Shown: positions 2-59,811 of the stretch, piece after piece
Position numbering within the stretch: position 1 is the first letter of the stretch
How the letters are laid out: every line of letters begins with the position of its first letter
Assembly: GCA_047602505.1 (NCBI GenBank)
Contig: JASGHD010000001.1
Span: forward strand, 2,911,929 to 2,975,928
DNA from: Opitutaceae bacterium
Lineage (GTDB): Bacteria > Verrucomicrobiota > Verrucomicrobiia > Opitutales > Opitutaceae
Direction of reading: 5' to 3'
DNA: 64,000 nucleotides
Notes under the pieces: model-generated
What the model was told of the DNA's origin: nothing
The model's database searches: none
What the model saw: only the letters and a program-made list of their open reading frames with translations
Program-made: the position numbers and the translations under genes

Positions 2-3000
2 GGTCTCGCCTCCACCCAAGTCGCCGCGCTCGCCACGACCCAGCTCGCCGCCCTCGCGCCCGATGCGCTCGCCGGGTTCGCGGCCGAGGATCTGGCCGCT
101 CTCTCCACTGCGCAGCTCACCGCGTTCACCGCCGCGCAATTCGGCGCGCTCACCGAAACGCAGGTCGCCGTCCTTGCACCCGCGCAGATCGCCGCTCTCA
201 CCGCCACCCAGCTCGCCGGCATGGACAGCACGCAGGTCGCCGCCCTCTCCGCCGCCCAGCTCGCCCAGCTTTCGCCCGAGCAACTCACGCTGCTCTCGCT
301 CGCCGGCCTCGACGGCTTCACCCCCGCCAAGATCGCCGCGCTCTCCAGCGCCCAGCTCGGGGCGCTCGGCGCCACGCATCTCGCCAGCCTCGCCGCCACG
401 CAGGTTGCCGCGCTCGCCGCCGCCCAGCTCGCCGCCCTCTCCACCACCCAGCTTAACCAACTTTCTGAGACGGGCATCGCCGCCTTCACCGCCACCCAGA
501 TTGCCGCGCTCACCACCACCCAGCTCGCAGGCTTCTCCACCACGCAGCTCGCCGGCCTCACCGCGGAAGAAGTCGCGGCGCTCGGCGCCACGCAACTCGC
601 CACGCTCTCCACGCGCCAGCTCGCCGCCCTCTCCACCACCGCGGTCGCGGGCCTCACCGCCACGAGTTTCGCCGCCCTCTCGGCCACGCAGCTCGCCGCC
701 TTCAGCTCGACCCAGTTCGGCGCCCTCACCACCGCACAGCTCGCCTCCCTCGCTCCCACCCAGCTCGCCACCCTCGCCGCCACCGAGCTGCGCGGCCTCA
801 CCGAGACGCAGACCGCCGCCCTCTCCACCACCCAGCTCGCCGCCCTCTCGGCCACACAGTTCGCCGCGCTCTCCACGATCGCCATCGCCGGCCTCACCGC
901 CACCCAGCTCGCCGCCCTCTCCACCACCCAGCTCAAAGGCCTCGCCGTCACCGGCCTGGCCGCTCTCACCACGCGCCAGCTCGCCGCCCTCGCCGGCCCG
1001 CAGCTCGCCAGCCTCTCCACGACTCAGCTCCGCGGCCTCACCGCCACCCAGGTCGGTGCGCTCGGTGCCACGCAACTCGCCGCTTTGGGCACGACTCAGG
1101 TCGCCGCCCTCACCGCCACCCAGTTGCAAGGCCTTTCGAGCAACGGCGTCGCCGCGCTGGCGCCCACGCAACTTGCCGCCCTGGCCACGACGCAGCTCGC
1201 CGCTCTCACCACGACCGGCCTCGCCGGGCTCGGCACCGCCGAGCTCGCCGCGCTCTCCACGCGCCAGCTCGCGGCGTTCACCGCCACGCAGTTCGGCGCG
1301 CTCTCGGCCGAGCAACTCGCGGCCCTGAACATCACCCAGATCCGCGTGCTCACCGCCACCGAGATCGCCGGCCTCACCTCGACTCAGCTCGGCAGCCTCG
1401 CGGCCACGCAACTCGCCGCGTTCACCACCACGCAGCTCGCCGCCCTTTCCGCCACCGGCATCAAAGGCCTCACCGCCACCCAGCTCGCCGCCTTCGCGGG
1501 CACCCAGCTGGGCGCGCTCACCGCCGCCGAGTTCGCCGCCCTCTCCACCACCCAGGTCAGCCAGTTGACGGCCACGCAACTCGCCGCCCTCTCCACTACT
1601 CAACTACGCGGTCTGACCACCACCGGGCTCAGCGCCCTCACCGCCACACAATTCGCCGCGCTCTCCACCACCCAGCTCGCGAATCTCTCGCTCGCCCAAT
1701 TCCGCGGTCTCACCAGTGCCGCCGTGGCCGCGCTTTCGACCGCCCAGCTCGCCGCCCTCTCCACCACCCAGCTCGCCAGCCTCTCGACCGCCGCCGTCAC
1801 CGGCCTCTCCGCGACCGATTTTGCGGCGCTCACCGCCCGCCAGCTCGGCGCGTTCACGGCCACGCAGCTCGCCGCCCTCTCCACCGCACAGGTCTCCACG
1901 CTCGACGGCGAACTGCTCGCCGCGTTCACCACCACACAGGTGCGCGGCCTCGTCGACACCCAAGTCGGCGCGCTCAGCACGACACAGCTCGCCGCGCTCA
2001 CGACCAGCCAGCTCGCTTCGCTCTCCACCGGCGGCGCCTCCGGCCTCACCGCCACCCAGCTCACCTCGCTGAGCACCACGCAACTCGGCGCCCTCGCCGC
2101 CACCGAGATCGAGTCCCTTGCCACCGGCGCGCTTGCCGGCCTCTCGACCACCACGCTCGCGGCGTTCACCCGCACCCAGTTCGCCAGCCTCGCGGCCACC
2201 GGGCTCGCGGCGCTCTCCACCACGCAGATCGCCGGCCTCGGCACCGCGCAACTCGAGGTCTTGTCCGCCACCGGCCTAGCCGGCCTCACCTCCCGGCAGG
2301 TTGCCGCCCTCGGGTCGACCCAGCTCGCCACCCTCACCGCCGCGCAACTCGCCGCCCTCTCCACCACCGGATTGCGCGGCCTCACGGCCGCCCAGATCGC
2401 CACGCTCACGACCACGCAACTCGTCGCCCTCGGCGCCGAAGGCGCGGCCGCCCTCTCCGCCACCGCCGTCTCCGGCCTGTCCGCCACCCAGCTCGCATCC
2501 CTCACCACCGCGCAGTTCGTCAGCCTCTCGGCCGACGGCATCTCCGGTCTCGGCACCGCGGAATTCGCGGGCCTGAGCGCCACCCAGCTCGCGTTGCTCA
2601 ACGCCACCGAGCTCGGCGGCCTCACCGCCGCGCAGCTCGCCGCCCTCGCCACGGCCAAATTCGAGACGTTCTCCCCCGACCAACTTTCGCTCCTCTCGAC
2701 TTCCGCCATCTCCGGCCTCACCGCCGCGCAGCTCGCCGCCCTCAACGAGACGCGCCTGGCCGCCCTCGGCTCGACCCAGCTCGCCGCCCTCACCACCGCG
2801 CAGATCGGCCAGCTCACGGCCACCCAGATCGCCGAGCTGGATACCGCGCAGATCGCCGGCTTGGTGCGCCCGCAACTCCGCGCCCTCGGCGCCGAGCAGT
2901 TCGCGGCACTTTCCACCACGCAGATCGCCGCCCTCTCCGGCGCGCAGTTCGCCAACCTCACCTCGACCGAGCTGCGCGCCCTCAGCTCCGCCCAGCTCGG

Positions 3001-3314: not shown

Positions 3315-5318
3315 ATGTCCCCCGTTTCACCGCCCTCCGCGCTCCTCCAGACGATGGCCCCCGGCTTCGGCGTCACCGAGCTCATCCGAACCGCGGATAC
3401 ACTCAGGCAGACCGGCCGGGCCGCCGCCATCGAGCCGCTCTACGCCACCTGGATCGCGCGCAACTCCACCCACCCGCTCCTCTACGCCATCCTCTTCAAC
3501 TACTCGGTCACCCTCTCCGACGCCGGCAAACTCGACGCCGCCCGCACCGCCCTCGAGCACGCCCTCGCGCTCAACGCCGACTTCCTGCCCGCCCACATCA
3601 ACCTCGGGCGGCTCTATGAACGCCTCGGCATGGTCGGCCTCGCGCTCGTCCAGTGGTCCGCCGTGAGCACCAAGCTCGCCGCCGTCAACGGCCCCGCCAT
3701 CGCGCACAAGACGATGGCGCTCAACCAGAGCGCCCGCGCGCTCGAGGCCGCCGCCCAGGATGAGCCCGCCGAGGATCTCCTCCGCCAGAGCCTCGAGATC
3801 GACCCGCGCCAGCACGAGGTCGCGCAACACTTCCTCGCCCTGCGCCAACGGCAGTGCAAATGGCCCGTCGTGGTTCCGTGGGAACGCGTCGACCGCGAGA
3901 CCCTCCTGCGCGGCATGTCCCCCCTCTCGTTCGCCGCCTACACCGACGACCCGCTGCTCCAGCTCGCCGCCGCCGCGCACTACAACCGCACCGAGATCGG
4001 CGCGCCCGCCTCGCCACCGCCGGCGCTCGATCGCGCCCGCGCGAGCGGCCCGCGTCTGCGCCTCGGCTACGTCTGCTCGGATTTCCGTGAACACGCGCTC
4101 GGCTACCTCCTCACCGAGGTGCTCGGCCTCCACGACCGCGCCCGGGTCGAGGTTTTTGCCTACTACTGCGGCCCCGAGGCCGCCGACCCGCTCCACGCGC
4201 AGTTCCAGACCACCGCCGATCACTGGGTGCCGATCACCGCGCTCGACGATGCCACCGCCGCCGCGCGCATCGCGGCCGACGGCATCCAGATTCTCGTCGA
4301 TCTCAACGGCTACACCCGCGAAGCCCGCGTGAAACTCTTCGCGCTCCGCCCCGCGCCGGTGCTCGTCAACTGGCTCGGCTACCCCGGCACGATGGCGAGC
4401 CCGTATCACCACTACGTCATCGCCGACGACTGGATCGTCCCGCCCGAGCACGAGCTCTACTTCTCCGAGCGCGTGCTCCGCCTGCCGTGCTACCAGCCCA
4501 GCGCGCGCACCCGCACGGTCGCGCCCGAGCCGCCCACGCGCGCCACCGCCGGCCTGCCGGACGACGCGATCGTCTACTGCTGCTTCAACGGCGCGCACAA
4601 GATCACCCGTTTCACGCTCGACCGCTGGCTCTCCATCCTCGAACGCGTGCCGCGCAGCGTGCTCTGGCTGCTCGGCAGTTCCGACGCCGCACAGGAACGC
4701 CTCCGCTCCCACGCCGCGCGCCGCGGGCTCGATCCGCAACGCCTCGTCTTCGCCCCGAAGCTCGCCAACCCGCACCACCTCGCGCGCTACCCGCTCGCCG
4801 ACCTCTTCCTCGACACCACGCCCTACGGCGCGCACACCACCGCCTCCGACGCACTCTGGATGGGCGTGCCCGTGCTCACGCTCAGCGGTCGCTCCTTCGC
4901 CTCGCGCGTCTGCGGCAGCCTCGTGCGCGCCGCGGGCCTGCCCGAACTCGCCTGCACCCACGCGCTCACGTTCCTCGCCACCGCCGTCGATCTCGGCCTG
5001 CACCCGGAAAAACTCCGCGCGCTCCGCGCCCGGCTCGCCGCCAACCGCGACACCTGCACGCTCTTCGACATGCCGCAGCTCGTCGCCCGCCTCGAGGATC
5101 TCTACGCCGAGATGTGGGCCGCTTGTGAAGCCGGACGCCTCCCGCAGCCCGATCTCGCCAACCTCGACGTCTACCTCGAAGTCGGCGCTCAGCTCGACCA
5201 CGAGGAGATCGATGTGCAGGCGATCGACGACTACCACCAGTTCTGGCGCGAACGGCTCCTCCGCCGCCACGCCTTCCGCCCGCTCTCTCCCGACCGCCGT
5301 CTGGTCGACTTCGCCTGA
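3315..5318 (+). CDS. TPR-repeat glycosyltransferase of the O-GlcNAc transferase (GT41/SPINDLY-like) family.
   Basis: The N-terminal half is TPR-like. The C-terminal half carries the OGT catalytic-domain hallmarks: LRLGYVCSDFREHALGYLL, ILVDLNGYT, VLVNWLGYPGT, YCCFNGAHKITRFTLDRW, LFLDTTPYGAHTTASDALWMGVPVLTLSG. Confidence 0.8.
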   Translation: MSPVSPPSALLQTMAPGFGVTELIRTADTLRQTGRAAAIEPLYATWIARNSTHPLLYAILFNYSVTLSDAGKLDAARTALEHALALNADFLPAHINLGRLYERLGMVGLALVQWSAVSTKLAAVNGPAIAHKTMALNQSARALEAAAQDEPAEDLLRQSLEIDPRQHEVAQHFLALRQRQCKWPVVVPWERVDRETLLRGMSPLSFAAYTDDPLLQLAAAAHYNRTEIGAPASPPPALDRARASGPRLRLGYVCSDFREHALGYLLTEVLGLHDRARVEVFAYYCGPEAADPLHAQFQTTADHWVPITALDDATAAARIAADGIQILVDLNGYTREARVKLFALRPAPVLVNWLGYPGTMASPYHHYVIADDWIVPPEHELYFSERVLRLPCYQPSARTRTVAPEPPTRATAGLPDDAIVYCCFNGAHKITRFTLDRWLSILERVPRSVLWLLGSSDAAQERLRSHAARRGLDPQRLVFAPKLANPHHLARYPLADLFLDTTPYGAHTTASDALWMGVPVLTLSGRSFASRVCGSLVRAAGLPELACTHALTFLATAVDLGLHPEKLRALRARLAANRDTCTLFDMPQLVARLEDLYAEMWAACEAGRLPQPDLANLDVYLEVGAQLDHEEIDVQAIDDYHQFWRERLLRRHAFRPLSPDRRLVDFA

Positions 5319-7208: not shown

Positions 7209-9020
7209 TCAGGAAAACAGCTCCTGCAGCTCGCCCACGGAGTGGCGGCGCGCCCACAGCACGAAGGTCTCGCCCGGCTCGTGGCGCTGTTGGTAGGTGG
7301 CGAGGATCTTCGCCACCAACGCGGGCAACTCCGCGGCGTCGACCCCGCGGAAAATCTCGCGCGCGATGCCCTGCTCGGGGCCCATGCCGCCGCCGAGCAC
7401 CACGTGGTAGCCCTCGCGGCCGTCGGCGAGCTTCACGCCCACGCCGCCGATGTCGCCACAGTAGTGTTGCGCGCAGGAGTTCGGGCAGCCGGTGAGGTGG
7501 ATGTTCACCGGGAAATCGGTCGTGAGGCCCTGCGCGGCGAGATGTTTGGCGACGGCGGCGGCGTGGCCCTTTGTGTCGGCCGCGGCGTACTTGCAGCCCT
7601 TGCTGCCGGTGCACGCGACGAGGCAGCCGGTCGTGTTGCCCGGATCCGTGAAGAGCCCGGCGGAGCGCAACGCCCGCTCGACCGTGCCGACGTACGCGTC
7701 CGGCACGTGCGGGATGAGCAGATTCTGCCACACGGTGAGCCGCACCTCGCCCTGGCCGTAGTGCTCCGCCACATCCGCGATCCGCCGCAGTTGCCGCGCG
7801 CTCAACCGCCCGACCGGCACGCCGACGCCGATGTAGTTCAGGTGCGACTGGCTCTGCCGGCCGACGCCGAGGTGCGCGTGCTTGACCGGTGGATGCCGCG
7901 CCTCGCACCCCTCGGGCGCGAGGCGGCGCAGCGGGAACGCGAGCTTGCGTTCCGTCTCGGCGAGAAACTTCTCCACGCCCCATTTGCCGAGCAGATATTT
8001 GAGCCTCGCCTTCTTGCGGTCGGTGCGGTCGCCGTTCTCGCGGAACACATGGAGCATCGCCGCCGCGACCGGCACGAGTTCGTCGGCAGAGAGCAGCAGG
8101 CCCGTGTCGCGCGCGAAATCGCCGTGGCCGGTGATCCCGCCGAGCTGCACGCGGAAGTACACGCCCGGCGCGAGCCCGTCGGCCGCGCCGCCGAGCTTAG
8201 CGAGCGAGGCGGGCGTGACGCGCACGGCGAAGAAGCCGATGTCGTTCGTGTCGGCGGCGGACGAGATCGCGCCGCCCGAGTCGAAGGCGATGTTGAACTT
8301 CCGTGGGAGCCCGAAGAGATCGCGGTGGTTGAGGATGTAGTGGTGCAGCGCGCGCGCGTACGGCCGCACATCGATGATCTCGGAGCGGTCGAAGCCGGAG
8401 GTCGGTGTCGCGGTGATGTTGCGCACGTTGTCCGCCCCGGCGCCGCGCGAGGTGAGCCCGAGATCCTGCAGGCGCGTGAGCACGTCGACGATCGTTTGCG
8501 GCTTCAGCTCCCGGAACTGCAGGTTGGCGCGCGTGGTGATGTCGGCGCCGCCGTTGCCCAGTTCCGCCAGGTCGGCGAGCCCGCGCAACTGCGCCGCGCG
8601 TAGCTCTCCGGCGGGTACACGGATGCGCAGCATGAAGCTGTTCTGCGTGGGCGCCACGTAGAACAGCCCGAAGAACTTGAAGCGGAAGGTGTCCGCCTCG
8701 TCGGGAAACTTCCCGGTCGCCGCGTGCGCGACGAGCTTGTCCCAGATGTCGAGGCCGTGCTGCTCGCGTTTCCACTTCTCCGGTTTCGAGAGCTCGGAGA
8801 GCGGCGTGCCGAAGACGGTCTCCTCCGGCGCCTCGGCGGCTGGGTCGGCGAGGTTCCCACCCGCGGCCGACGCCGGTTCGCCGGTGAGCCGACCGGCGGC
8901 ATCGCGACCGACAAACGGCAGCCCGCGTGCGGCGATCTCGCCGGCGAGAAACCCTTCGAGGAATTGTTTCTGCTCGGCGGTGAAGCCGGCGGATGGAGCG
9001 GCGAGAGTCGGTGCGGACAT
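7209..9020 (-). CDS. cysI: Sulfite/nitrite reductase haemoprotein beta subunit (CysI/NirA family; sirohaem-[4Fe-4S]).
   Basis: Nitrite/sulfite reductase ferredoxin-like half-domains and the cysteine cluster motif TGCPNSCAQHYCGDIGGVGVK. It sits directly upstream of the cysJ-like gene on the same strand. The substrate (sulfite or nitrite) cannot be decided from sequence alone. Confidence 0.75.
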   Translation of the reverse strand: MSAPTLAAPSAGFTAEQKQFLEGFLAGEIAARGLPFVGRDAAGRLTGEPASAAGGNLADPAAEAPEETVFGTPLSELSKPEKWKREQHGLDIWDKLVAHAATGKFPDEADTFRFKFFGLFYVAPTQNSFMLRIRVPAGELRAAQLRGLADLAELGNGGADITTRANLQFRELKPQTIVDVLTRLQDLGLTSRGAGADNVRNITATPTSGFDRSEIIDVRPYARALHHYILNHRDLFGLPRKFNIAFDSGGAISSAADTNDIGFFAVRVTPASLAKLGGAADGLAPGVYFRVQLGGITGHGDFARDTGLLLSADELVPVAAAMLHVFRENGDRTDRKKARLKYLLGKWGVEKFLAETERKLAFPLRRLAPEGCEARHPPVKHAHLGVGRQSQSHLNYIGVGVPVGRLSARQLRRIADVAEHYGQGEVRLTVWQNLLIPHVPDAYVGTVERALRSAGLFTDPGNTTGCLVACTGSKGCKYAAADTKGHAAAVAKHLAAQGLTTDFPVNIHLTGCPNSCAQHYCGDIGGVGVKLADGREGYHVVLGGGMGPEQGIAREIFRGVDAAELPALVAKILATYQQRHEPGETFVLWARRHSVGELQELFS

Positions 9021-54374: not shown

Positions 54375-55208
54375 ATGAAGCAAAGCTCGCCCATCCGGCG
54401 TGAGTTCGCGCTGCCTCCGCCGGAGCTGCGTGAGCTCATCGAGCGCCTCTGGTCATGGGAGAGCGATGCCGCGGTGCCGTTGCCACTGCTGTTGCCCGGC
54501 ACGGGGGCCGAGCTGGTGCTGCACTACCGCACGCCGTTCGTCGCGTTTGGGAGCGACGGCTCGCGGCATTTCCCCGGGGCGGCGCACCTCTCGGGGCTGC
54601 GGAGCTTCTCGTGTCGGCTCGTGGCGCCTGGGCCGGTCGGTTTCGTGGCGGTGCGGTTCCGCTCCGGAGCGGTCCGGCACTTCGGTCGGCTGCGCGCGAC
54701 CGAGGTGATCGACCGGTTTCCGGCGGCGGCGGAGCACTTCGGCCCGGCGGTGGATGAACTCGCGGCGGAGTTGCCGCGGCTGCCGGATTTCGCGCGCCGC
54801 GCGGAGCGGATCGGCGCATTTCTGCTCGAACGGCTCCGGCCGATCGCCGCGGGACGGGAGCGCGCAGACCGGGTGGTGGAGGCGCTCTACTATCGCGAGC
54901 CGGAGGCCTCGGTGGCGGACCTGGCGGAGGATTTCGGGTACAGCAGGCGCCAGCTCGAGCGTCTGGTGGACGAGGCGGCCGGCTCGTCGCCGAAACGTTT
55001 CCGCCGCGTCGCCCGCCTGCACCACACGATGCGGCACCTGCTGCTCGCGCGTGAAACCGACTACCTCGACGCCGCGCTCGCCCGGGGTTTCTACGACCAG
55101 GCGCATTTCATCCACGAGCTGGGTGCGCTCACCGGGCACACCCCGCGCGAGGTGCTGACGCCGGAGGCGTTCGTGTCGCATTTCTACAATCCGCGGCTGC
55201 CGCGTTGA
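54375..55208 (+). CDS. AraC-family transcriptional regulator.
   Basis: C-terminal double HTH (ADLAEDFGYSRRQLERLV…FYDQAHFIHELGALTGHTPRE). Confidence 0.8.
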   Translation: MKQSSPIRREFALPPPELRELIERLWSWESDAAVPLPLLLPGTGAELVLHYRTPFVAFGSDGSRHFPGAAHLSGLRSFSCRLVAPGPVGFVAVRFRSGAVRHFGRLRATEVIDRFPAAAEHFGPAVDELAAELPRLPDFARRAERIGAFLLERLRPIAAGRERADRVVEALYYREPEASVADLAEDFGYSRRQLERLVDEAAGSSPKRFRRVARLHHTMRHLLLARETDYLDAALARGFYDQAHFIHELGALTGHTPREVLTPEAFVSHFYNPRLPR

Positions 55209-55234
55209 GGTACGATGCGGGCGGATTCTCCCGC

Positions 55235-55822
55235 ATGAAAAACATCATCGCCACTCTCCGCGCCAAGCCCGGCCAAGGCGCGGCCCTCGAAACGCTCCTG
55301 CGCGACCAGGTGCGCCTCACCGCCGCCGAACCCGGCGCGATGGTCTACGAACTCCTGCGCGACGAGGCGCAGCCCGACACGCTGGTCGTGTACGAACGTT
55401 ATCGCGACGCCGCCGCGAAGGCCGTGCACCTCGCGACGCCGTATCTCGCCGCCACGCTGGAGCGCGCGGCGCCGTTGCTCGCGGAGCCGCCGGTGCTGCG
55501 ACACCTCGAGACGCTCGCCGCGATCCGCCACGAACAGACCGTTGTCGACGGGCGCATGGTCGAGCTCGTCGCTTTGCCGCTGGGTCCGGTGAAGCTCGTC
55601 TATGCGCGGACGGAGCGCGGGCTGCTGGCCTGCGGCGCGATCGACCCGGCCGCGTTGGAGAAGTTCGGGATCGCCGCCGCGCGCGTGCGGCCGACGACCG
55701 GCAGCTCGGTCGGCAGTCTCGACGACCTGCTCGCCGGCGAGGTGCGCGAGGCGAACACCGCCGCGCAGGCGCTCGGCATCGCGCCCGGCATGAGCGGTCG
55801 CGCGACGCTGGCGCGGCTGTGA
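55235..55822 (+). CDS. Fusion of an antibiotic-biosynthesis-monooxygenase (ABM) domain and a DUF1805 (YunC-like) domain.
   Basis: N-terminal MKNIIATLRAKPGQGAALETLLRDQV…VVYERYRD (ABM). C-terminal GRMVELVALPLGPVKLVYARTERGLLACGAIDPAALEKFGIAAARV (YunC-like). Confidence 0.65.
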   Translation: MKNIIATLRAKPGQGAALETLLRDQVRLTAAEPGAMVYELLRDEAQPDTLVVYERYRDAAAKAVHLATPYLAATLERAAPLLAEPPVLRHLETLAAIRHEQTVVDGRMVELVALPLGPVKLVYARTERGLLACGAIDPAALEKFGIAAARVRPTTGSSVGSLDDLLAGEVREANTAAQALGIAPGMSGRATLARL

Positions 55823-55927
55823 ACGCGGAGGGCGGCAAGAGCCTGCGCCTTGCGATCCGCGACCACGCGTCGCCCGACGGAAGCGGAACGATACTCTTCG
55901 CGGTGACCAGCAGTTGCGGCCTCCAGT

Positions 55928-55950
55928 CATGTCAACCAATAGTTGACATG
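55928..55950. repeat. Palindromic element copy 3 (CATGTCAACCAATAGTTGACATG).
   Basis: Perfect 9-bp arms. It lies between the convergent 3' ends of the ABM-DUF1805 gene and the TIR gene. Confidence 0.65.
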
Positions 55951-56343
55951 GCGGTGACACGAGCGCCGGCCTTTGGTGCGGGAGCGAACGGTGAGCGCGA
56001 CGTGGATTCGCTCCGATCCGTAGGGGATGAGGTTGGGGGCTGCTTGCGCGGACACTGGGGGCCAACGGCACTGCCGGGCGCCCGACGTGATCACTGCGCG
56101 ACGCGCGTGCGTCGCCACGGTGCTCCACTCCTGCAATCGCGACGGTTGGCGCGCGCGCCGGAGAGCGTTTTCACTGGGCCAAGCTTGCAGCGGCCATGCA
56201 ACACGCCATCGGCGGAGGTGCGCGCAACCGCGCGCGGCGTTTGGCGAACGAAGATCCGGGCGAACCCGCGGACGGAGTCCACGACCCGCTTGAGGGCAGC
56301 GGGTCAACCGCGAGTCGCGGACCGTCGCGCGGCTGGCGCGGCG

Positions 56344-57261
56344 TCACGCGGCCGGAGTCTGCTTGTGCCACGTGACTTGTTCGCCGGCGGCGCTCACCCC
56401 GACGATCTGCTGCGCGTCGAAGAACGTGACCTGCACGAGCGCGTAGTAGGGCATCACCTGGAAGCCGGCGGCCTGGCGGCCCTGGAGCTGGATCTGGTTG
56501 GCGGCGGCATCCGCCTTCCACTGGCCATCGACGATGCTCCGGCCCATCGGGGTGAGGAGCTCGCCGCGGAACGAGCCTTCGGCGGTGAGAACCAACTGGA
56601 GGTTGGCCATAGCGAAAGGATTTTGGATACGTACTTGCCACGCGCCGGGCAGCAGCTCCGGCAAGGCGAGCGGGAGATCGAGGCCGAGCTCGCGGAGCAC
56701 CTGCCGCGGGTTGCGATTCCGCAGGGGCTCGGCGGCGGGCATGGCCGCCGCCGCGGGTTTCGCCGCTCGTTTGCGGCGGGGGCGCTCCGGCTTCGGTGCG
56801 GGGGGAAGCGGCGGGGGCACGGCGGCCGCGCCGGGCTTCCGGCCGGTGATGCCCCAAAGAAGACGGCTGAGCGCCTTCTCATCGTCATCGCCTGCGCCGA
56901 GGTCGACCCAGGTGCGGCTGCGGAGGAAGAGCGGCAACGCGGGTTTGTGCGCGCCGCGCAGGAGGACGGGGATCACGGGGCGCAGCGTCTCCTTGTCGTC
57001 GACGGCGAGCTGCAGCGCGGCGCGCATCTCCTCGGTTTCCCACGGTCCGGCGCCCGACTCGCCGACGACGACGGCGACGCTGCGCGACTGGAGGATGCCG
57101 TCCTCGAGGAGTTGCTGCCAAGGGATGCCGGGGCGGAGCTCGTCCTCGTCGAACCAGACGGTGAGCTGGTGCGCGAGCAGGCGGTCGCGGAGGGTGCGCA
57201 CGGCGGGCTTGTCCTTGTTGCTGTGCGAGAGGAAGACGTCGAAGGCGGGCGGCTGGCTCAT
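56344..57261 (-). CDS. TIR-domain protein with a Pro-rich linker and a C-terminal domain of unknown function.
   Basis: N-terminal FDVFLSHSNKDKPAVRTLRDRLLAHQLTVWFDEDELRPG…SRSVAVVVGESGAGPWETEEM follows the TIR pattern (FxSY/H…D; W-F-D; VVV…S.W…E). Then PPPLPPAPKPERP, then about 120 aa of unknown, beta-rich-looking sequence. Confidence 0.7.
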   Translation of the reverse strand: MSQPPAFDVFLSHSNKDKPAVRTLRDRLLAHQLTVWFDEDELRPGIPWQQLLEDGILQSRSVAVVVGESGAGPWETEEMRAALQLAVDDKETLRPVIPVLLRGAHKPALPLFLRSRTWVDLGAGDDDEKALSRLLWGITGRKPGAAAVPPPLPPAPKPERPRRKRAAKPAAAAMPAAEPLRNRNPRQVLRELGLDLPLALPELLPGAWQVRIQNPFAMANLQLVLTAEGSFRGELLTPMGRSIVDGQWKADAAANQIQLQGRQAAGFQVMPYYALVQVTFFDAQQIVGVSAAGEQVTWHKQTPAA

Positions 57262-57393
57262 GGCGGGGCAGTTGTTCGGGGTGGCGAAAAACGCCCCGGG
57301 GCGCGCCTGGTGGGGGCAACCGCGTTCCGGGAACGGCGTTGAGGATACGCGTCGGCGCCCGAGAATCGAGCGGCAACAAGCCGTTTCGCTCGA

Positions 57394-58584
57394 TCAACGC
57401 GACGGCGGCAGCGGCACGAGCGGGATGCCGCGCGGACAACTGCCGCCAGCGCGGACGAACTGGCTGCGACAGCGCGGGCAGTAGCTCCGGGCGTTCGCGC
57501 CGTCCGTGCGCGGCGGGGCGAGCAGCGCGGCGGGGTCGATGCCGCCTGTGCCGAGCCACTCACCGAAGCGATGTTCGCCATCGTCCGCGTGCCACGCGCG
57601 GATCGCGCGCGCGGCGGCGAGCAACTCTGGCGGGGCGGACAACTCCGGGTTTTCGCCGGCGGAAACCTCCTCGGGCAACGGCAGCGGCCAACGCGCATCG
57701 GCAAGCGCGGCGAACGCCGTTTCCTCGCGCAGCCGGCGGCCGGGCGCGGCGAGCGCGACGAGCAGCGGATGCGGCGCGGGCGCGGCGGCATCGGTCAACA
57801 GCCGGCGCCAGCGCAGACCCTGCGGCGGGAACAGGGCGGCGGAGAAAATGGCCTTTGTCGTGCCGGGTTGGAGCCAGCGCCGGAGCCGGCGCGCGGCGAG
57901 GACGGCGGTGACGATCCCGCCGAGATAGGCGAGCAGCGCGAAGAGCAGCAGCGGCGAGAGCAGGCGCAGGATGCGCGGCGCCTCCTCGTATTCCTCGGTC
58001 GACGGCGCGAGGCAGACGATCGCGGTGACGGCGGCCATCGCGAGGAGTGCGGCGGTGTTGAGCCAGGCGCAATCGCCCGTGCGGCGGCGGATCACCGCGA
58101 GGCGGCGGCGCCAGTGTGCGGGCCGCAGCCGCAGATCGAGCCAGCGGCGCAGGTGCGCTTCGCGCTCGGCGGGCGCGAGCGGCGCGAGAACGCGGGCGAG
58201 GGCCAGCAACTCGGCGGCAGGCCAGGCGGCGGCGGCGGGCGCGAAGAGCCGGCCGTTGATGACGAGCCAGCCTTGTTTCTCGACGACGCTTTCGAGCTGT
58301 TCCCAGCGCCAGACCGCGGTGAAGGGCGCACGCGCGGCGGGGCGACCGGCTGTCGCCACGTACTGGTTACAGAGGCCTTCGGGCGAAAGGGCGAACGGCG
58401 GGTCGTCGGCACGGAACCGCCAGGTCCACGGCGCGGGCGGGAGGAGGTGAAGCCGTTCATGGCGCAGCGCCGCGGGCCACGGTGCGCCGCGGCGGATGGT
58501 GGTGTGCGGCAGCCGGCGGCGCCGCAGGCCGTCGACGAGGTAGGCGATCCAGAAGATCGCGAGCACGGACCACCATTCGGACAT
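57394..58584 (-). CDS. Membrane protein with a C-terminal CxxC…C zinc-ribbon-like motif; unknown function.
   Basis: Start MSEWWSVLAIFWIAYLV (TM helix). More TM helices in the middle. C-terminal YCPRCRSQFVRAGGSCPRG. Confidence 0.5.
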   Translation of the reverse strand: MSEWWSVLAIFWIAYLVDGLRRRRLPHTTIRRGAPWPAALRHERLHLLPPAPWTWRFRADDPPFALSPEGLCNQYVATAGRPAARAPFTAVWRWEQLESVVEKQGWLVINGRLFAPAAAAWPAAELLALARVLAPLAPAEREAHLRRWLDLRLRPAHWRRRLAVIRRRTGDCAWLNTAALLAMAAVTAIVCLAPSTEEYEEAPRILRLLSPLLLFALLAYLGGIVTAVLAARRLRRWLQPGTTKAIFSAALFPPQGLRWRRLLTDAAAPAPHPLLVALAAPGRRLREETAFAALADARWPLPLPEEVSAGENPELSAPPELLAAARAIRAWHADDGEHRFGEWLGTGGIDPAALLAPPRTDGANARSYCPRCRSQFVRAGGSCPRGIPLVPLPPSR

Positions 58585-58683
58585 GGGGGAGGAGAGTTCC
58601 GGAAGGCGACCGAAGGCAACGCGGAGAGCGAACGCGGCGCTCGGCACGCCTGTCGCGGGCCAGGGAAGGCGAGACGGCGCCGC

Positions 58684-59637
58684 TCAGGCGGACTTATCGG
58701 AATCGGTCGGGTGCGAACCGGTGAGCTTCTTGAAGAGCTTGGCGATGCCGGCGCCGATCGCGGCGATCACGACGATGATGCCCTTGCCGAGCTTCGCGAG
58801 GAGCGCGCCAAACTTGGAGAGCAGTCCCATCTTGGCGGCGGCCGCGGCGCCGCCGCCGAGCACGAGGGCGGAGAGGCCGACGGCAGCGATCTTGTCGCCC
58901 TTCTTCCACTCGGCGTAGCGGTGCCCGGAGGTGTAGCCGAAGTTGCCGGCGAGCAGGGTGGCGGTGGCCTGCGAGGCGGCGGCGTACTCCTCGGGATCGG
59001 CGACAAGGGTGACGTTCATGTAGCCGCCGCGGCCGAGGAGGCGGATGTTCTCGTTGATCCAGTAGGACTGGTGGTTGTCGCGCGATGACGAGAGCTTGAG
59101 CGCCCAGGTGAGATTGTGCGTCTTCTCGTCGTAACGCGGGGTGGCGGCCCAGCCTTGGAGCTGCATCTCGTCCCAGCCCTCCTTCTTGCGCGCCTCGTTG
59201 GCGGCGGCCTGGTTCTCGCGCATCGAGGCGAGGAGCTTGTCGGCGTTGAGCTGGTCCTTCTCGTCGTCCTTCACGTAGCCGACCTCGGCGAAGTCGAAGA
59301 AGAGCATCCAGCCGGCGGGATCGATCACGACGCCGACCTCGTCGCCGGCGCGCATGTTGTGGGTGAGCTTGTAGAAGAGATCGAGGGAGTCGGTGCCGAC
59401 GAACGACTGGCCGGGTTGGAGTTGATATTCGGCGACGGAGCCGAGCGCGACTTGGGCGGGGCCCTCGGTGGTCTTCACGCCCTTGCGGTGGAGCGCCTCG
59501 ACGAACGTCTTCGGCGGTTCCTCCTCGACCGGCGTGGCCGCGGCGGCGGGCGGGGCCGCGGGCGCAGGATCGGCGCGGAGGGCGAGCGGGGTGGCGAAGA
59601 GCAGGGCGGCGAGAAACGAACGGGAAACGAGGTGCAT
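58684..59637 (-). CDS. DUF2167-like membrane-anchored secreted protein.
   Basis: Signal peptide MHLVSRSFLAALLFATPLALRA, a globular middle region, and a C-terminal hydrophobic anchor GIIVVIAAIGAGIAKLFKKL. The family assignment is from memory and moderate. Confidence 0.55.
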   Translation of the reverse strand: MHLVSRSFLAALLFATPLALRADPAPAAPPAAAATPVEEEPPKTFVEALHRKGVKTTEGPAQVALGSVAEYQLQPGQSFVGTDSLDLFYKLTHNMRAGDEVGVVIDPAGWMLFFDFAEVGYVKDDEKDQLNADKLLASMRENQAAANEARKKEGWDEMQLQGWAATPRYDEKTHNLTWALKLSSSRDNHQSYWINENIRLLGRGGYMNVTLVADPEEYAAASQATATLLAGNFGYTSGHRYAEWKKGDKIAAVGLSALVLGGGAAAAAKMGLLSKFGALLAKLGKGIIVVIAAIGAGIAKLFKKLTGSHPTDSDKSA

Positions 59638-59811
59638 GGGCCGGAGGGATTGGGATAAAGGGCGCGGCGACGGGGAGGAAGTCACGAGCAAGAAAGCGCG
59701 GCGCGGCGCGCGCAACTCTCGGCTGCCGGCCGGGTGTACCGTTTTGGTAAACCTGCGGACCGCCGAGCGCTCAGCGGCGGCGCGGCGTGGCGACAGGGCG
59801 CGCGCGGGGGG

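Follow-up and report, generated by a model that had tools for sequence, protein, structure and literature searches.

A TIR protein of Opitutaceae carries X, a predicted calycin-type barrel domain shared among effector and adaptor proteins

Results

Locus, gene and encoded protein

The window analysed here, a 64,000-nucleotide stretch of a contig from an Opitutaceae bacterium, contains a minus-strand gene for a protein that consists of an N-terminal TIR domain, a linker and a C-terminal domain, hereafter called X (Table 1). The open reading frame agrees exactly with the coordinates of an earlier note on this DNA, which named no strand, with the stop codon counted in, and the protein N-terminus reads MSQPPAFDVFLSH. 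The start codon is backed by the orthologues P0019 and L047, which open with MSQPPAFDVF. The identical protein P0018 is recorded as [quoted passage not shown], and full-length orthologues show 38-83% identity to the window protein. Neither a signal peptide nor a transmembrane segment was found by eye in the TIR-X protein, and the first strand of the TIR domain begins at residue 7. The G+C content of the window is about 71% and is flat.

The earlier note had read the protein as a TIR domain, a proline-rich linker and an unrecognised C-terminal domain, and this layout was borne out by profile searches and AF2. All the strings that it quoted were found in the translation, namely FDVFLSHSNKDK at aa 7-18, WFDEDEL at aa 36-42, VAVVVGESGAGPWETEEM at aa 62-79, the linker string PPPLPPAPKPERPRRKRAAKPAAAA at aa 149-173 and the C-terminal string at aa 208-282.

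Table 1. Features of the TIR-X gene in the window
Feature	Positions	Strand	Basis or remark
TIR-linker-X coding sequence	56344..57261	-	ATG start, 305 aa + stop; ORF list, translation
TIR domain, aa 7-140	56842..57243	-	Pfam TIR_2, solved relatives, AF2 pLDDT ~90
E78 codon, W74-x-x-x-E78 motif, putative catalytic Glu	57028..57030	-	alignment to 3h16, 7uxr
Flexible linker, aa 141-192	56686..56841	-	composition, pLDDT 41-61
X domain, aa 193-305	56347..56685	-	predicted 8-stranded calycin-type beta-barrel, in no searched domain library

Three genes, namely a DUF2167 gene, a gene for a 417-aa protein without any Pfam match and the TIR-X gene, lie in this order on one strand with gaps of 36 and 132 bp, and no terminator-like site was found between them. 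The other neighbours in the window are genes for ABM-DUF1805, an AraC-type regulator, NamZ and glycerate kinase, and these are syntenic with the DUF2167 and 417-aa pair in related Opitutaceae contigs.

TIR domain

The N-terminal TIR call of the earlier note was supported by Pfam, where TIR_2 (PF13676) matched with E 2e-25 and a score of 90.1 bits (cut-off 28), spanning aa 9-135 of the protein and positions 1-122 of the 122 in the profile. The nearest solved TIRs are PdTIR (3h16, E 2e-6), AbTIR (7uwg/8g83), 7uxr and TIR-STING (6wt6). In the AF2 model, strands at residues 7-12, 59-66 and 96-100 and helices at 15-30, 48-57, 77-88 and 127-139 form the alternating beta/alpha order of a flavodoxin-like fold. 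Matches in PADLOC and NCBIfam (PDC-S66, bSEFIR, ThsB, retron-TIR) reach just the TIR portion of these longer profiles.

The glutamate of the WxxxE motif is the catalytic residue in NADase TIRs. In the window protein, E78 aligns with the motif glutamate of 3h16 (WPQKEL) and of 7uxr (WTEYEL), and it is kept in at least 90% of 50 full-length TIR-X homologues. Because this glutamate is retained in the sequence, the TIR domain of the window protein probably cleaves NAD+. It is established for NAD+-cleaving TIR enzymes that activity appears only once TIR domains come together.

Linker and full-length model

The linker contains 13 Pro, 12 Ala, 9 Arg and 4 Lys in 52 residues. As the earlier note had described, it is rich in proline, and AF2 predicts it to be disordered, with pLDDT below 50 at aa 158-180. 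Homologues differ freely in its length and sequence, and coiled coils stand in for it in some of them (L021, P0165). In the full-length AF2 model, the TIR domain and X reached pLDDT of ~90 and ~97, respectively, while pTM was 0.53 and the linker was disordered, so that no fixed interface between TIR and X is predicted. An autoinhibitory docking of X on the TIR domain was also considered and is unsupported in view of this pTM, the disordered linker and one homologue of reversed domain order, AF2 being a weak means of exclusion.

X is an independent domain

The C-terminal part, which the earlier note could not recognise, gave no significant match in Pfam, NCBIfam, PADLOC or PHROGs, and the Pfam scan of X returned nothing at E<=1 except for BigA_N at 0.19. 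The proposal of a separate C-terminal domain stood, while its length of ~120 aa was corrected with the HMM to ~113 aa (193-305). When 1.84 billion representatives were searched exhaustively with phmmer, X homologues fell into 93 clusters at 50% identity (E<=1e-3), of which 41 had E<=1e-10. When the C-terminal 132 aa were used as query, 17 proteins of 51-66% identity were obtained, all of them 90-171 aa in length and with X at the C-terminus; a further homologue search, run with a profile of divergent X domains, gave only three proteins. Two long multi-repeat phmmer matches (P0197 and P0214) were rejected as spurious, since they are cadherin/Ig repeat proteins and negative with the X HMM. P0201 is a distant X relative at best, and P0148 and P0206 appear chimeric or frameshifted.

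In an alignment of 97 non-redundant X domains, W208, G246, W248 and G261 are invariant. AF2 with this alignment predicted one short helix and, after it, eight antiparallel strands in direct succession (mean pLDDT 94.4, pTM 0.84). The structure prediction and fold search that had been suggested for the C-terminal region gave a region predicted with very high confidence to be folded and, in Foldseek, barrels. A C-terminus that is disordered or devoid of conserved homologues had been named in advance as the outcome speaking against a functional domain, and in view of the pLDDT and the 93 homologue clusters neither is the case. X is a real, independent domain, as is evident from its confident fold, the 93 clusters, its occurrence alone, the one reversed order and the lack of predicted docking.

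Fold of X

Calycins are +1 up-and-down barrels with a signature of Gly-X-Trp on strand A and Arg on strand H; one end of the barrel is open, often with a ligand site, and YxeF shows that the C-terminal helix can be missing (PMC3367933). The AF2 model of X has the same topology, with eight antiparallel strands in +1 up-and-down order. Its strand 1 starts with G-x-W (G206 conserved in 99%, W208 in 100%), and the end of strand 8 is always basic at position 300, which is Arg in 63% and, different from the calycin Arg, Lys in 37% of X members including the window protein (K300). This signature was read as sequence positions, and a Trp-Arg contact would be expected from them rather than taken from coordinates. 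Because of the +1 up-and-down eight-stranded barrel in the model, G-x-W on strand 1 and R/K on strand 8, we classify X as a predicted calycin-type barrel outside every catalogued sequence family. X does not belong to a Pfam calycin or lipocalin family by sequence or profile, and it has no kernel-lipocalin C-terminal helix, as the model stops five residues past strand 8. The SCR2 motif of lipocalins is of T-D-Y type, and the X conservation table contains no motif of this type.

The folds closest to the X model were designed barrels, ToxS/VtrC, lipocalins and Cap15, with the same outcome from Foldseek. ToxS was the best natural match, and designed barrels, ToxS and lipocalins were all nearer to X than Cap15. 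In the BFVD fold search, the second match was annotated as an S-2TMbeta effector (E 1.6e-4). The profile search against PDB sequences hit designed mFAP barrels only, via the N-terminal G-x-W segment alone, and hhalign of X with a repeat protein that has a sub-threshold Calycin_like match gave a probability of 41%. Eight-stranded barrels form a structural continuum, so these fold matches give no function.

Conserved surface and core of X

Throughout the eight strands of X, ~15 positions hold Gln in 51-78% of sequences and alternate with positions at which at least 95% of residues are hydrophobic. The composition of X is rich in Gln (12.3%) and Gly (10.8%) and poor in Arg (3.7%), Lys (0.8%) and Asp (1.6%), and the conserved charges are only E294 (92%) and R/K300 (100%). 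The barrel core is generically hydrophobic. The best conserved positions outside the core are P215, P238, G240, G266, P271, Y272, G293 and E294, which lie in loops at one end of the barrel. From the topology and the calycin signature, we infer that this end may be the rim of the open barrel end. Similarly, the up-and-down topology and the Trp/Arg plug of calycins suggest that W208, F231, W248 and W298 gather at the closed end, of which the loops are variable and indel-rich. The Gln positions would face outward, again judging from topology and calycin signature and not from model coordinates.

X as a mobile module

X is a mobile module shared among effector and adaptor proteins. Among 79 representatives, Pfam identified TIR_2 as the N-terminal partner of X in 49, CHAT in three, Trypsin_2 and EAD7 in two each, and EAD2, Pkinase and SEFIR in one each. 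The reversed order X-linker-TIR was found in one protein (P0138), and X was also found alone in X-only proteins. The longest genuine X protein is L021 from an Acidimicrobiia MAG, a CHAT-coiled-coil-X protein of 520 aa. EADs serve as coupling adaptors and are fused to cargo with an effector or signalling role (PMC7159879), and the words “barrel” and “lipocalin” are absent from the main text of that paper. In the limited set of literature that was searched, no earlier account of a barrel or lipocalin module was found for TIR, CHAT or EAD proteins.

A degenerate DNA pattern scan of species-representative genomes gave 35 matches, 19 of which were rejected by the HMM as chance ones; the scan finds only ~30% of the X family members. 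HMM-validated X genes occur in MAGs titled Opitutaceae, other Verrucomicrobia, Deferrisomatales, Acidimicrobiia and Actinomycetes, in a Methylococcaceae MAG (a disrupted copy) and in one MAG titled Euryarchaeota. They also occur in soil MAGs labelled “Acidobacteriaceae”; this label disagrees with NCBI, which names the related member P0063 “Candidatus Udaeobacter”.

Decay of the TIR domain in Opitutaceae

In the Opitutaceae clade of the window, the TIR domain is found in successive states of decay. Intact TIR-X is present in the window and in P0019-P0027, where TIR is 68-95% and X is 71-83% identical to the window protein. P0028 (234 aa) carries an internally truncated TIR. In P0051-P0057 the TIR is degenerate, with an identity of 40-47% versus 59-70% for X: FDVFLSH has turned into FDALLLH or FDVCLLH in these proteins, the WFDEDEL segment is lost in P0053-P0055, and E78 is replaced with Ala in P0051-P0055, while the motif is unrecognisable in P0056-P0057. 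Distant intact lineages show the reverse, 62-67% for TIR versus 47-56% for X.

TIR is absent from P0001-P0013, most of which begin with MSQP… or MSQH… and continue through a basic, linker-like tail into X. The X-only genes of P0005 and P0008 sit at the orthologous locus, as read from the contigs, and the X-only copy in L001 truly starts MSQPHATHRRPRSAK. The MSQP/MSQH starts, the linker-like tail and the orthologous locus indicate that the TIR-less copies arose by in-frame deletion of TIR. The invariant residues of X are kept in all X-only copies in the alignment. Since X is kept while TIR is dead or deleted, X is worth keeping even where the TIR does not work, and its function is not solely that of a switch for the TIR. 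Intact, catalytically dead and deleted TIR within one clade offer a natural comparison by which the function of X could be told apart from that of TIR.

Gene context across clades

The DUF2167 and ~400-aa genes were considered as a conserved operon partner and rejected, as the linkage is confined to Opitutaceae and the distant TIR-X and CHAT-X genes are without them. A ~396-aa protein encoded upstream of a CHAT-X gene, a candidate analogue of the 417-aa protein, is unrelated to it (BLASTP E 1.4). All-against-all BLAST of 485 ORFs from 23 loci detected no neighbour family common across clades with two exceptions, namely a cupin coincidence between L006 and L014 and an ORF pair of L024 and L026 beside the X-coding stretch, which probably overlaps the fusion genes. 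No gene for CD-NTase, cyclase, mCpol or another synthase lies next to the X genes in the 23 loci, and no partner gene of Thoeris, CBASS, Pycsar, SPARTA or retron-TIR systems (ThsA, CD-NTase/cyclase, pAgo, RT) adjoins TIR-X. A phage or mobile-element origin was also rejected, with tblastn of X empty in phages and plasmids, PHROGs empty and GC flat. The syntenic neighbourhood of TIR-X is of housekeeping type, and between the window and L006, TIR-X is 72% identical and the neighbours are 70-93% identical. With no shared neighbour, no phage or plasmid copies and neighbour-like divergence, the TIR-X gene is autonomous, chromosomal and vertically inherited, unlike a usual defence-island gene.

Discussion

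What was computed here is the architecture, fold class, calycin signature, modularity and conservation of the family, together with the findings that no partner gene is fixed and that X persists without TIR. On this background we tentatively propose, at somewhat short of an even chance, that TIR-X is a cytoplasmic, stand-alone protein of two modules, in which X controls a proximity-activated effector by binding a ligand or partner or by self-association. X would be the input module, with a disordered stretch of ~50 residues tethering it to the TIR. It may recognise a ligand or partner at the conserved open barrel end, and/or self-associate through the conserved outer surface, if this is coated with Gln as we infer. 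Either event would cluster the tethered TIRs and turn on the presumed NADase, and consumption of NAD+ may lead to growth arrest or cell death under infection or stress. In relatives, X may do the same for CHAT, trypsin-like peptidase, kinase and SEFIR, and for EAD adaptors. The “sensor or partner-binding domain” of the earlier note is consistent with a calycin-type barrel, a conserved rim and surface and modular fusions; as a statement on function it stays a suggestion. In a more specific form, X would found a new cytoplasmic class of calycin inputs for cell-death and immune effectors of bacteria, in which the rim senses a conserved cue inside the cell such as the end of a peptide or a small metabolite without charge, higher-order assembly resembles a polar zipper, X serves TIR, caspase-like, protease and kinase domains as a portable clustering switch and TIR-less proteins act as regulators or decoys, but this version is rather unlikely.

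Other explanations have to be weighed against this proposal. X may be a homotypic assembly or adaptor domain, an analogue of EAD/death-like domains, of which the Gln surface pairs X-tagged effectors and X-only proteins serve as regulators or decoys. This explanation would fit the ~15 conserved Gln positions alternating with the core on all strands, the very low charge, the retention of X-only proteins, the replacement of some linkers with coiled coils (L021, P0165) and the partners common to X and EADs (TIR, CHAT, trypsin, kinase), in addition to the fusions of X to EAD2 and EAD7 themselves. However, the Pfam census shows no X fused to a core NTPase/vWA, the way EADs couple, only one X copy was seen per locus and genome match (in the pattern scan recovering ~30% of the family), and lateral self-association alone leaves the conserved open-end rim unexplained. 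We regard the adaptor explanation as unlikely. It is less probable still that X is a receptor of a nucleotide second messenger like the Cap15/OptE barrel, with the synthase encoded elsewhere, for which TIR-STING and TIR-SAVED may be compared. No CD-NTase, cyclase, mCpol or other gene is conserved beside the X genes, X is without a PADLOC or Pfam match at E<=1 (BigA_N aside), the obligate 2TM of S-2TMbeta is missing, and the fold of X lies nearer to designed barrels, ToxS and lipocalins. Moreover, X is nearly uncharged (K 0.8%, R 3.7%), and its sole universal basic position, R/K300, makes it a poor fit to a phosphate-rich ligand.

TIR-X may also be a housekeeping or stress protein, in which the ligand of X is a hydrophobic or amphipathic metabolite, by analogy with ToxS/VtrC, which bind bile salts, and with lipocalins, which bind lipids, and the TIR tunes NAD+ or makes a signal, possibly together with the DUF2167 and 417-aa membrane proteins in Opitutaceae. 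The stable synteny, the ordinary divergence rate and the flat GC agree with such a role, as do the same-strand order of DUF2167, the 417-aa gene and TIR-X with short gaps and no terminator-like site, the rank of ToxS as the best natural fold match and the generically hydrophobic core. The lack of a defence island and of phage or plasmid copies, which is unusual for classical anti-phage genes, also leaves room for a non-immune physiological role. Nevertheless, the DUF2167/417-aa linkage is limited to one family-level clade and distant TIR-X genes are without it, the CHAT, trypsin, EAD and SEFIR partners are hallmarks of conflict and cell-death systems, and repeated loss of TIR in close relatives is more typical of costly, dispensable effectors. 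We consider the housekeeping explanation to be quite unlikely. Finally, X as a membrane-damaging effector, inserted as a small barrel with its hydrophobic face out and Gln lining the lumen, is highly improbable. Each of these rivals (nucleotide receptor, homotypic adaptor, housekeeping protein and membrane barrel) conflicts with at least one tested feature.

Bacterial TIRs are a main route to an understanding of the NAD+-based immunity that bacteria have in common with plants and animals, and the inputs of most solitary TIRs are unexplained. X, which is compact (~105 aa) and has a confident model, is a good candidate input for solitary TIRs because of its repeated fusion to TIR, caspase-like, protease, kinase and adaptor domains. 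If the two-module proposal is true, calycin barrels would extend from secreted carriers to the cytoplasmic control of cell-death effectors. If X does no more than bind some metabolite for housekeeping, what remains is one new domain family.

Among the known barrels, YxeF of B. subtilis, the BT_0869-type “lipocalin-like” proteins of Bacteroides and ToxS/VtrC are likewise eight-stranded lipocalin-like barrels without a C-terminal helix. On the other hand, these proteins are secreted, lipoproteins or periplasmic, whereas X resides in the cytoplasm, joined to TIR or another effector. To our knowledge, a conserved Gln coat and a near absence of charge are not known from described calycins. In S-2TMbeta proteins (Cap15/OptE, of CBASS and Panoptes), 2TM is obligately fused to the barrel and the synthase is encoded in the operon, and X has neither of them: the two-pass TM is absent by eye from the window protein and the X-only proteins, and no S-2TMbeta profile matches X. 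Where S-2TMbeta has 2TM, the other X representatives have TIR, CHAT, trypsin, kinase, EAD or SEFIR at the N-terminus. The outputs differ as well, a membrane element in Cap15/OptE versus TIR, protease or kinase in X proteins, and X is poor in charge.

TIR-STING, TIR-SAVED, AbTIR and PdTIR have the same TIR sequence type as the window protein, with the WxxxE Glu kept, and TIR-STING and TIR-SAVED resemble TIR-X in combining TIR with a separate non-catalytic domain. The partner in TIR-X is the predicted calycin barrel, in contrast to STING, SAVED or a coiled coil in the known sensor-TIRs, and TIR-X is solitary in a conserved chromosomal context, in contrast to a CBASS or Thoeris operon. EAD systems (PMC7159879) and the X family have effectors in common, namely TIR, CHAT/caspase-like, trypsin-like peptidase and kinase. 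EAD2 and EAD7 are present on only three distant X proteins, from contigs too short to reveal an NTPase or vWA core, and one EAD7-X gene adjoins a vWA-domain gene; unlike EAD systems, the window protein is without an EAD and without an NTPase or vWA core nearby. TIR fusions to uncharacterised sensor domains and the calycin fold class are already known. The novelty lies in the X family, which none of Pfam, NCBIfam, PADLOC, PHROGs and PDB sequences contains, in its setting in the cytoplasm, in its predicted Gln coat, in the portability of X between TIR, CHAT, trypsin, kinase, SEFIR and EAD proteins and in its retention once the TIR is lost.

Gene neighbourhood of TIR-X in the Opitutaceae

Of the two genes directly upstream of the TIR-X gene, on the same strand, one encodes a DUF2167 protein (E 2e-57); the product of the other is 417 aa long, lacks any Pfam match, and carries hydrophobic segments and a CPRC...C tail at its C-terminus. 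The gaps from the DUF2167 gene to the 417-aa gene and from there to TIR-X are 36 and 132 bp, respectively, and no terminator-like site was found among the three genes. Every related Opitutaceae locus (L001-L007) keeps this pair upstream of its X or TIR-X gene, but the X genes of distant clades lack it. Another pair, consisting of an ABM-DUF1805 fusion gene, the ABM part of which is an antibiotic biosynthesis monooxygenase, and an adjoining gene for an AraC-type regulator (DUF6597 and HTH_18 in the orthologues), is common to L001, L006 and L007. A 507-aa ORF spans the entire TIR-X gene in antisense, and the window (71% G+C) holds numerous further long, overlapping ORFs. These are presumably non-coding, reflecting the small number of stop codons in high-GC DNA.

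Coordinates of the features discussed (window, or X loci of other genomes)
Locus	Feature	Position	Strand	Remark
Window	AraC-type regulator gene	54375-55208	+	
Window	ABM-DUF1805 fusion gene	55205-55822	+	
Window	507-aa ORF	55819-57342	+	
Window	417-aa gene	57394-58647	-	
Window	DUF2167 gene	58684-59715	-	
L001	X-only gene	7940-8405	+	True start 5' of called GTG
L008	86-aa ORF	8303-8563	+	~440 bp downstream of TIR-X gene
L012	EAD7-X gene	668-1303	+	
L012	vWA-domain gene	1322-1990	-	Convergent with EAD7-X
L020	X domain	178-504	+	HMM E 1.4e-41
L021	X of 520-aa protein	2365-2697	-	Acidimicrobiia MAG
L036	Disrupted X copy	4233-4502	+	Methylococcaceae MAG

Variation and taxonomic distribution of X proteins

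With regard to the X-only gene of L001, the true start, at MSQPHATHRRPRSAK, agrees with the other X-only proteins and with the MSQP start of TIR-X in the window, and P0005 therefore has the wrong start in the database. The 520-aa protein of L021 has a repetitive helical spacer in place of the Pro-rich linker: an N-terminal region that is CHAT-like by eye is followed by a long tract of repeated EEEARAEAAKEAEERRLRA-type units with the appearance of a coiled coil, and then by X. In L036 the X frame ends past HMM position 88, with unrelated sequence thereafter. The 86-aa ORF of L008, which gave weak SEFIR/TIR_2 matches, is possibly a fragment of another TIR-type gene.

The X domain of L020, whose protein is cut off at the N-terminus by the locus start, resembles that of the TIR-X protein P0153, and its source is a 2.1-Mb chromosome titled 'Euryarchaeota archaeon'; an archaeal occurrence of X or a taxonomic mislabel is possible. 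The TIR-X genes of the P0063 subfamily in soil MAGs (L010/L033, L028, L031, L044 and L052) come from records titled 'uncultured Acidobacteriaceae bacterium', whereas the NCBI name of P0063 is 'Candidatus Udaeobacter sp.' (Verrucomicrobiota), so that one of the labels is probably wrong.

Possible relatives of X and a possible link to conflict systems

P0201 (764 aa) contains about five tandem 'GEWxL...' barrel-like repeats behind an N-terminus that is hydrophobic by eye, giving it a secreted appearance. With a sub-threshold Pfam Calycin_like match and a probability of 41% against the X profile (hhalign) over its N-terminal half only, this protein is possibly a remote relative of X. In BFVD, the viral protein closest to X in fold was A0A6J5MD96 (Foldseek E 6.8e-5, TMq 0.57, 14% identity), an uncharacterised Caudovirales protein of 108 aa. 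This likeness may be only generic barrel similarity, because no sequence-level match to X was found in phage genomes.

Finally, the EAD7-X gene of L012, on a contig of only 2 kb that leaves any wider EAD system beyond view, faces a vWA-domain gene, and vWA proteins belong to the core of the conflict systems that use EADs (PMC7159879).
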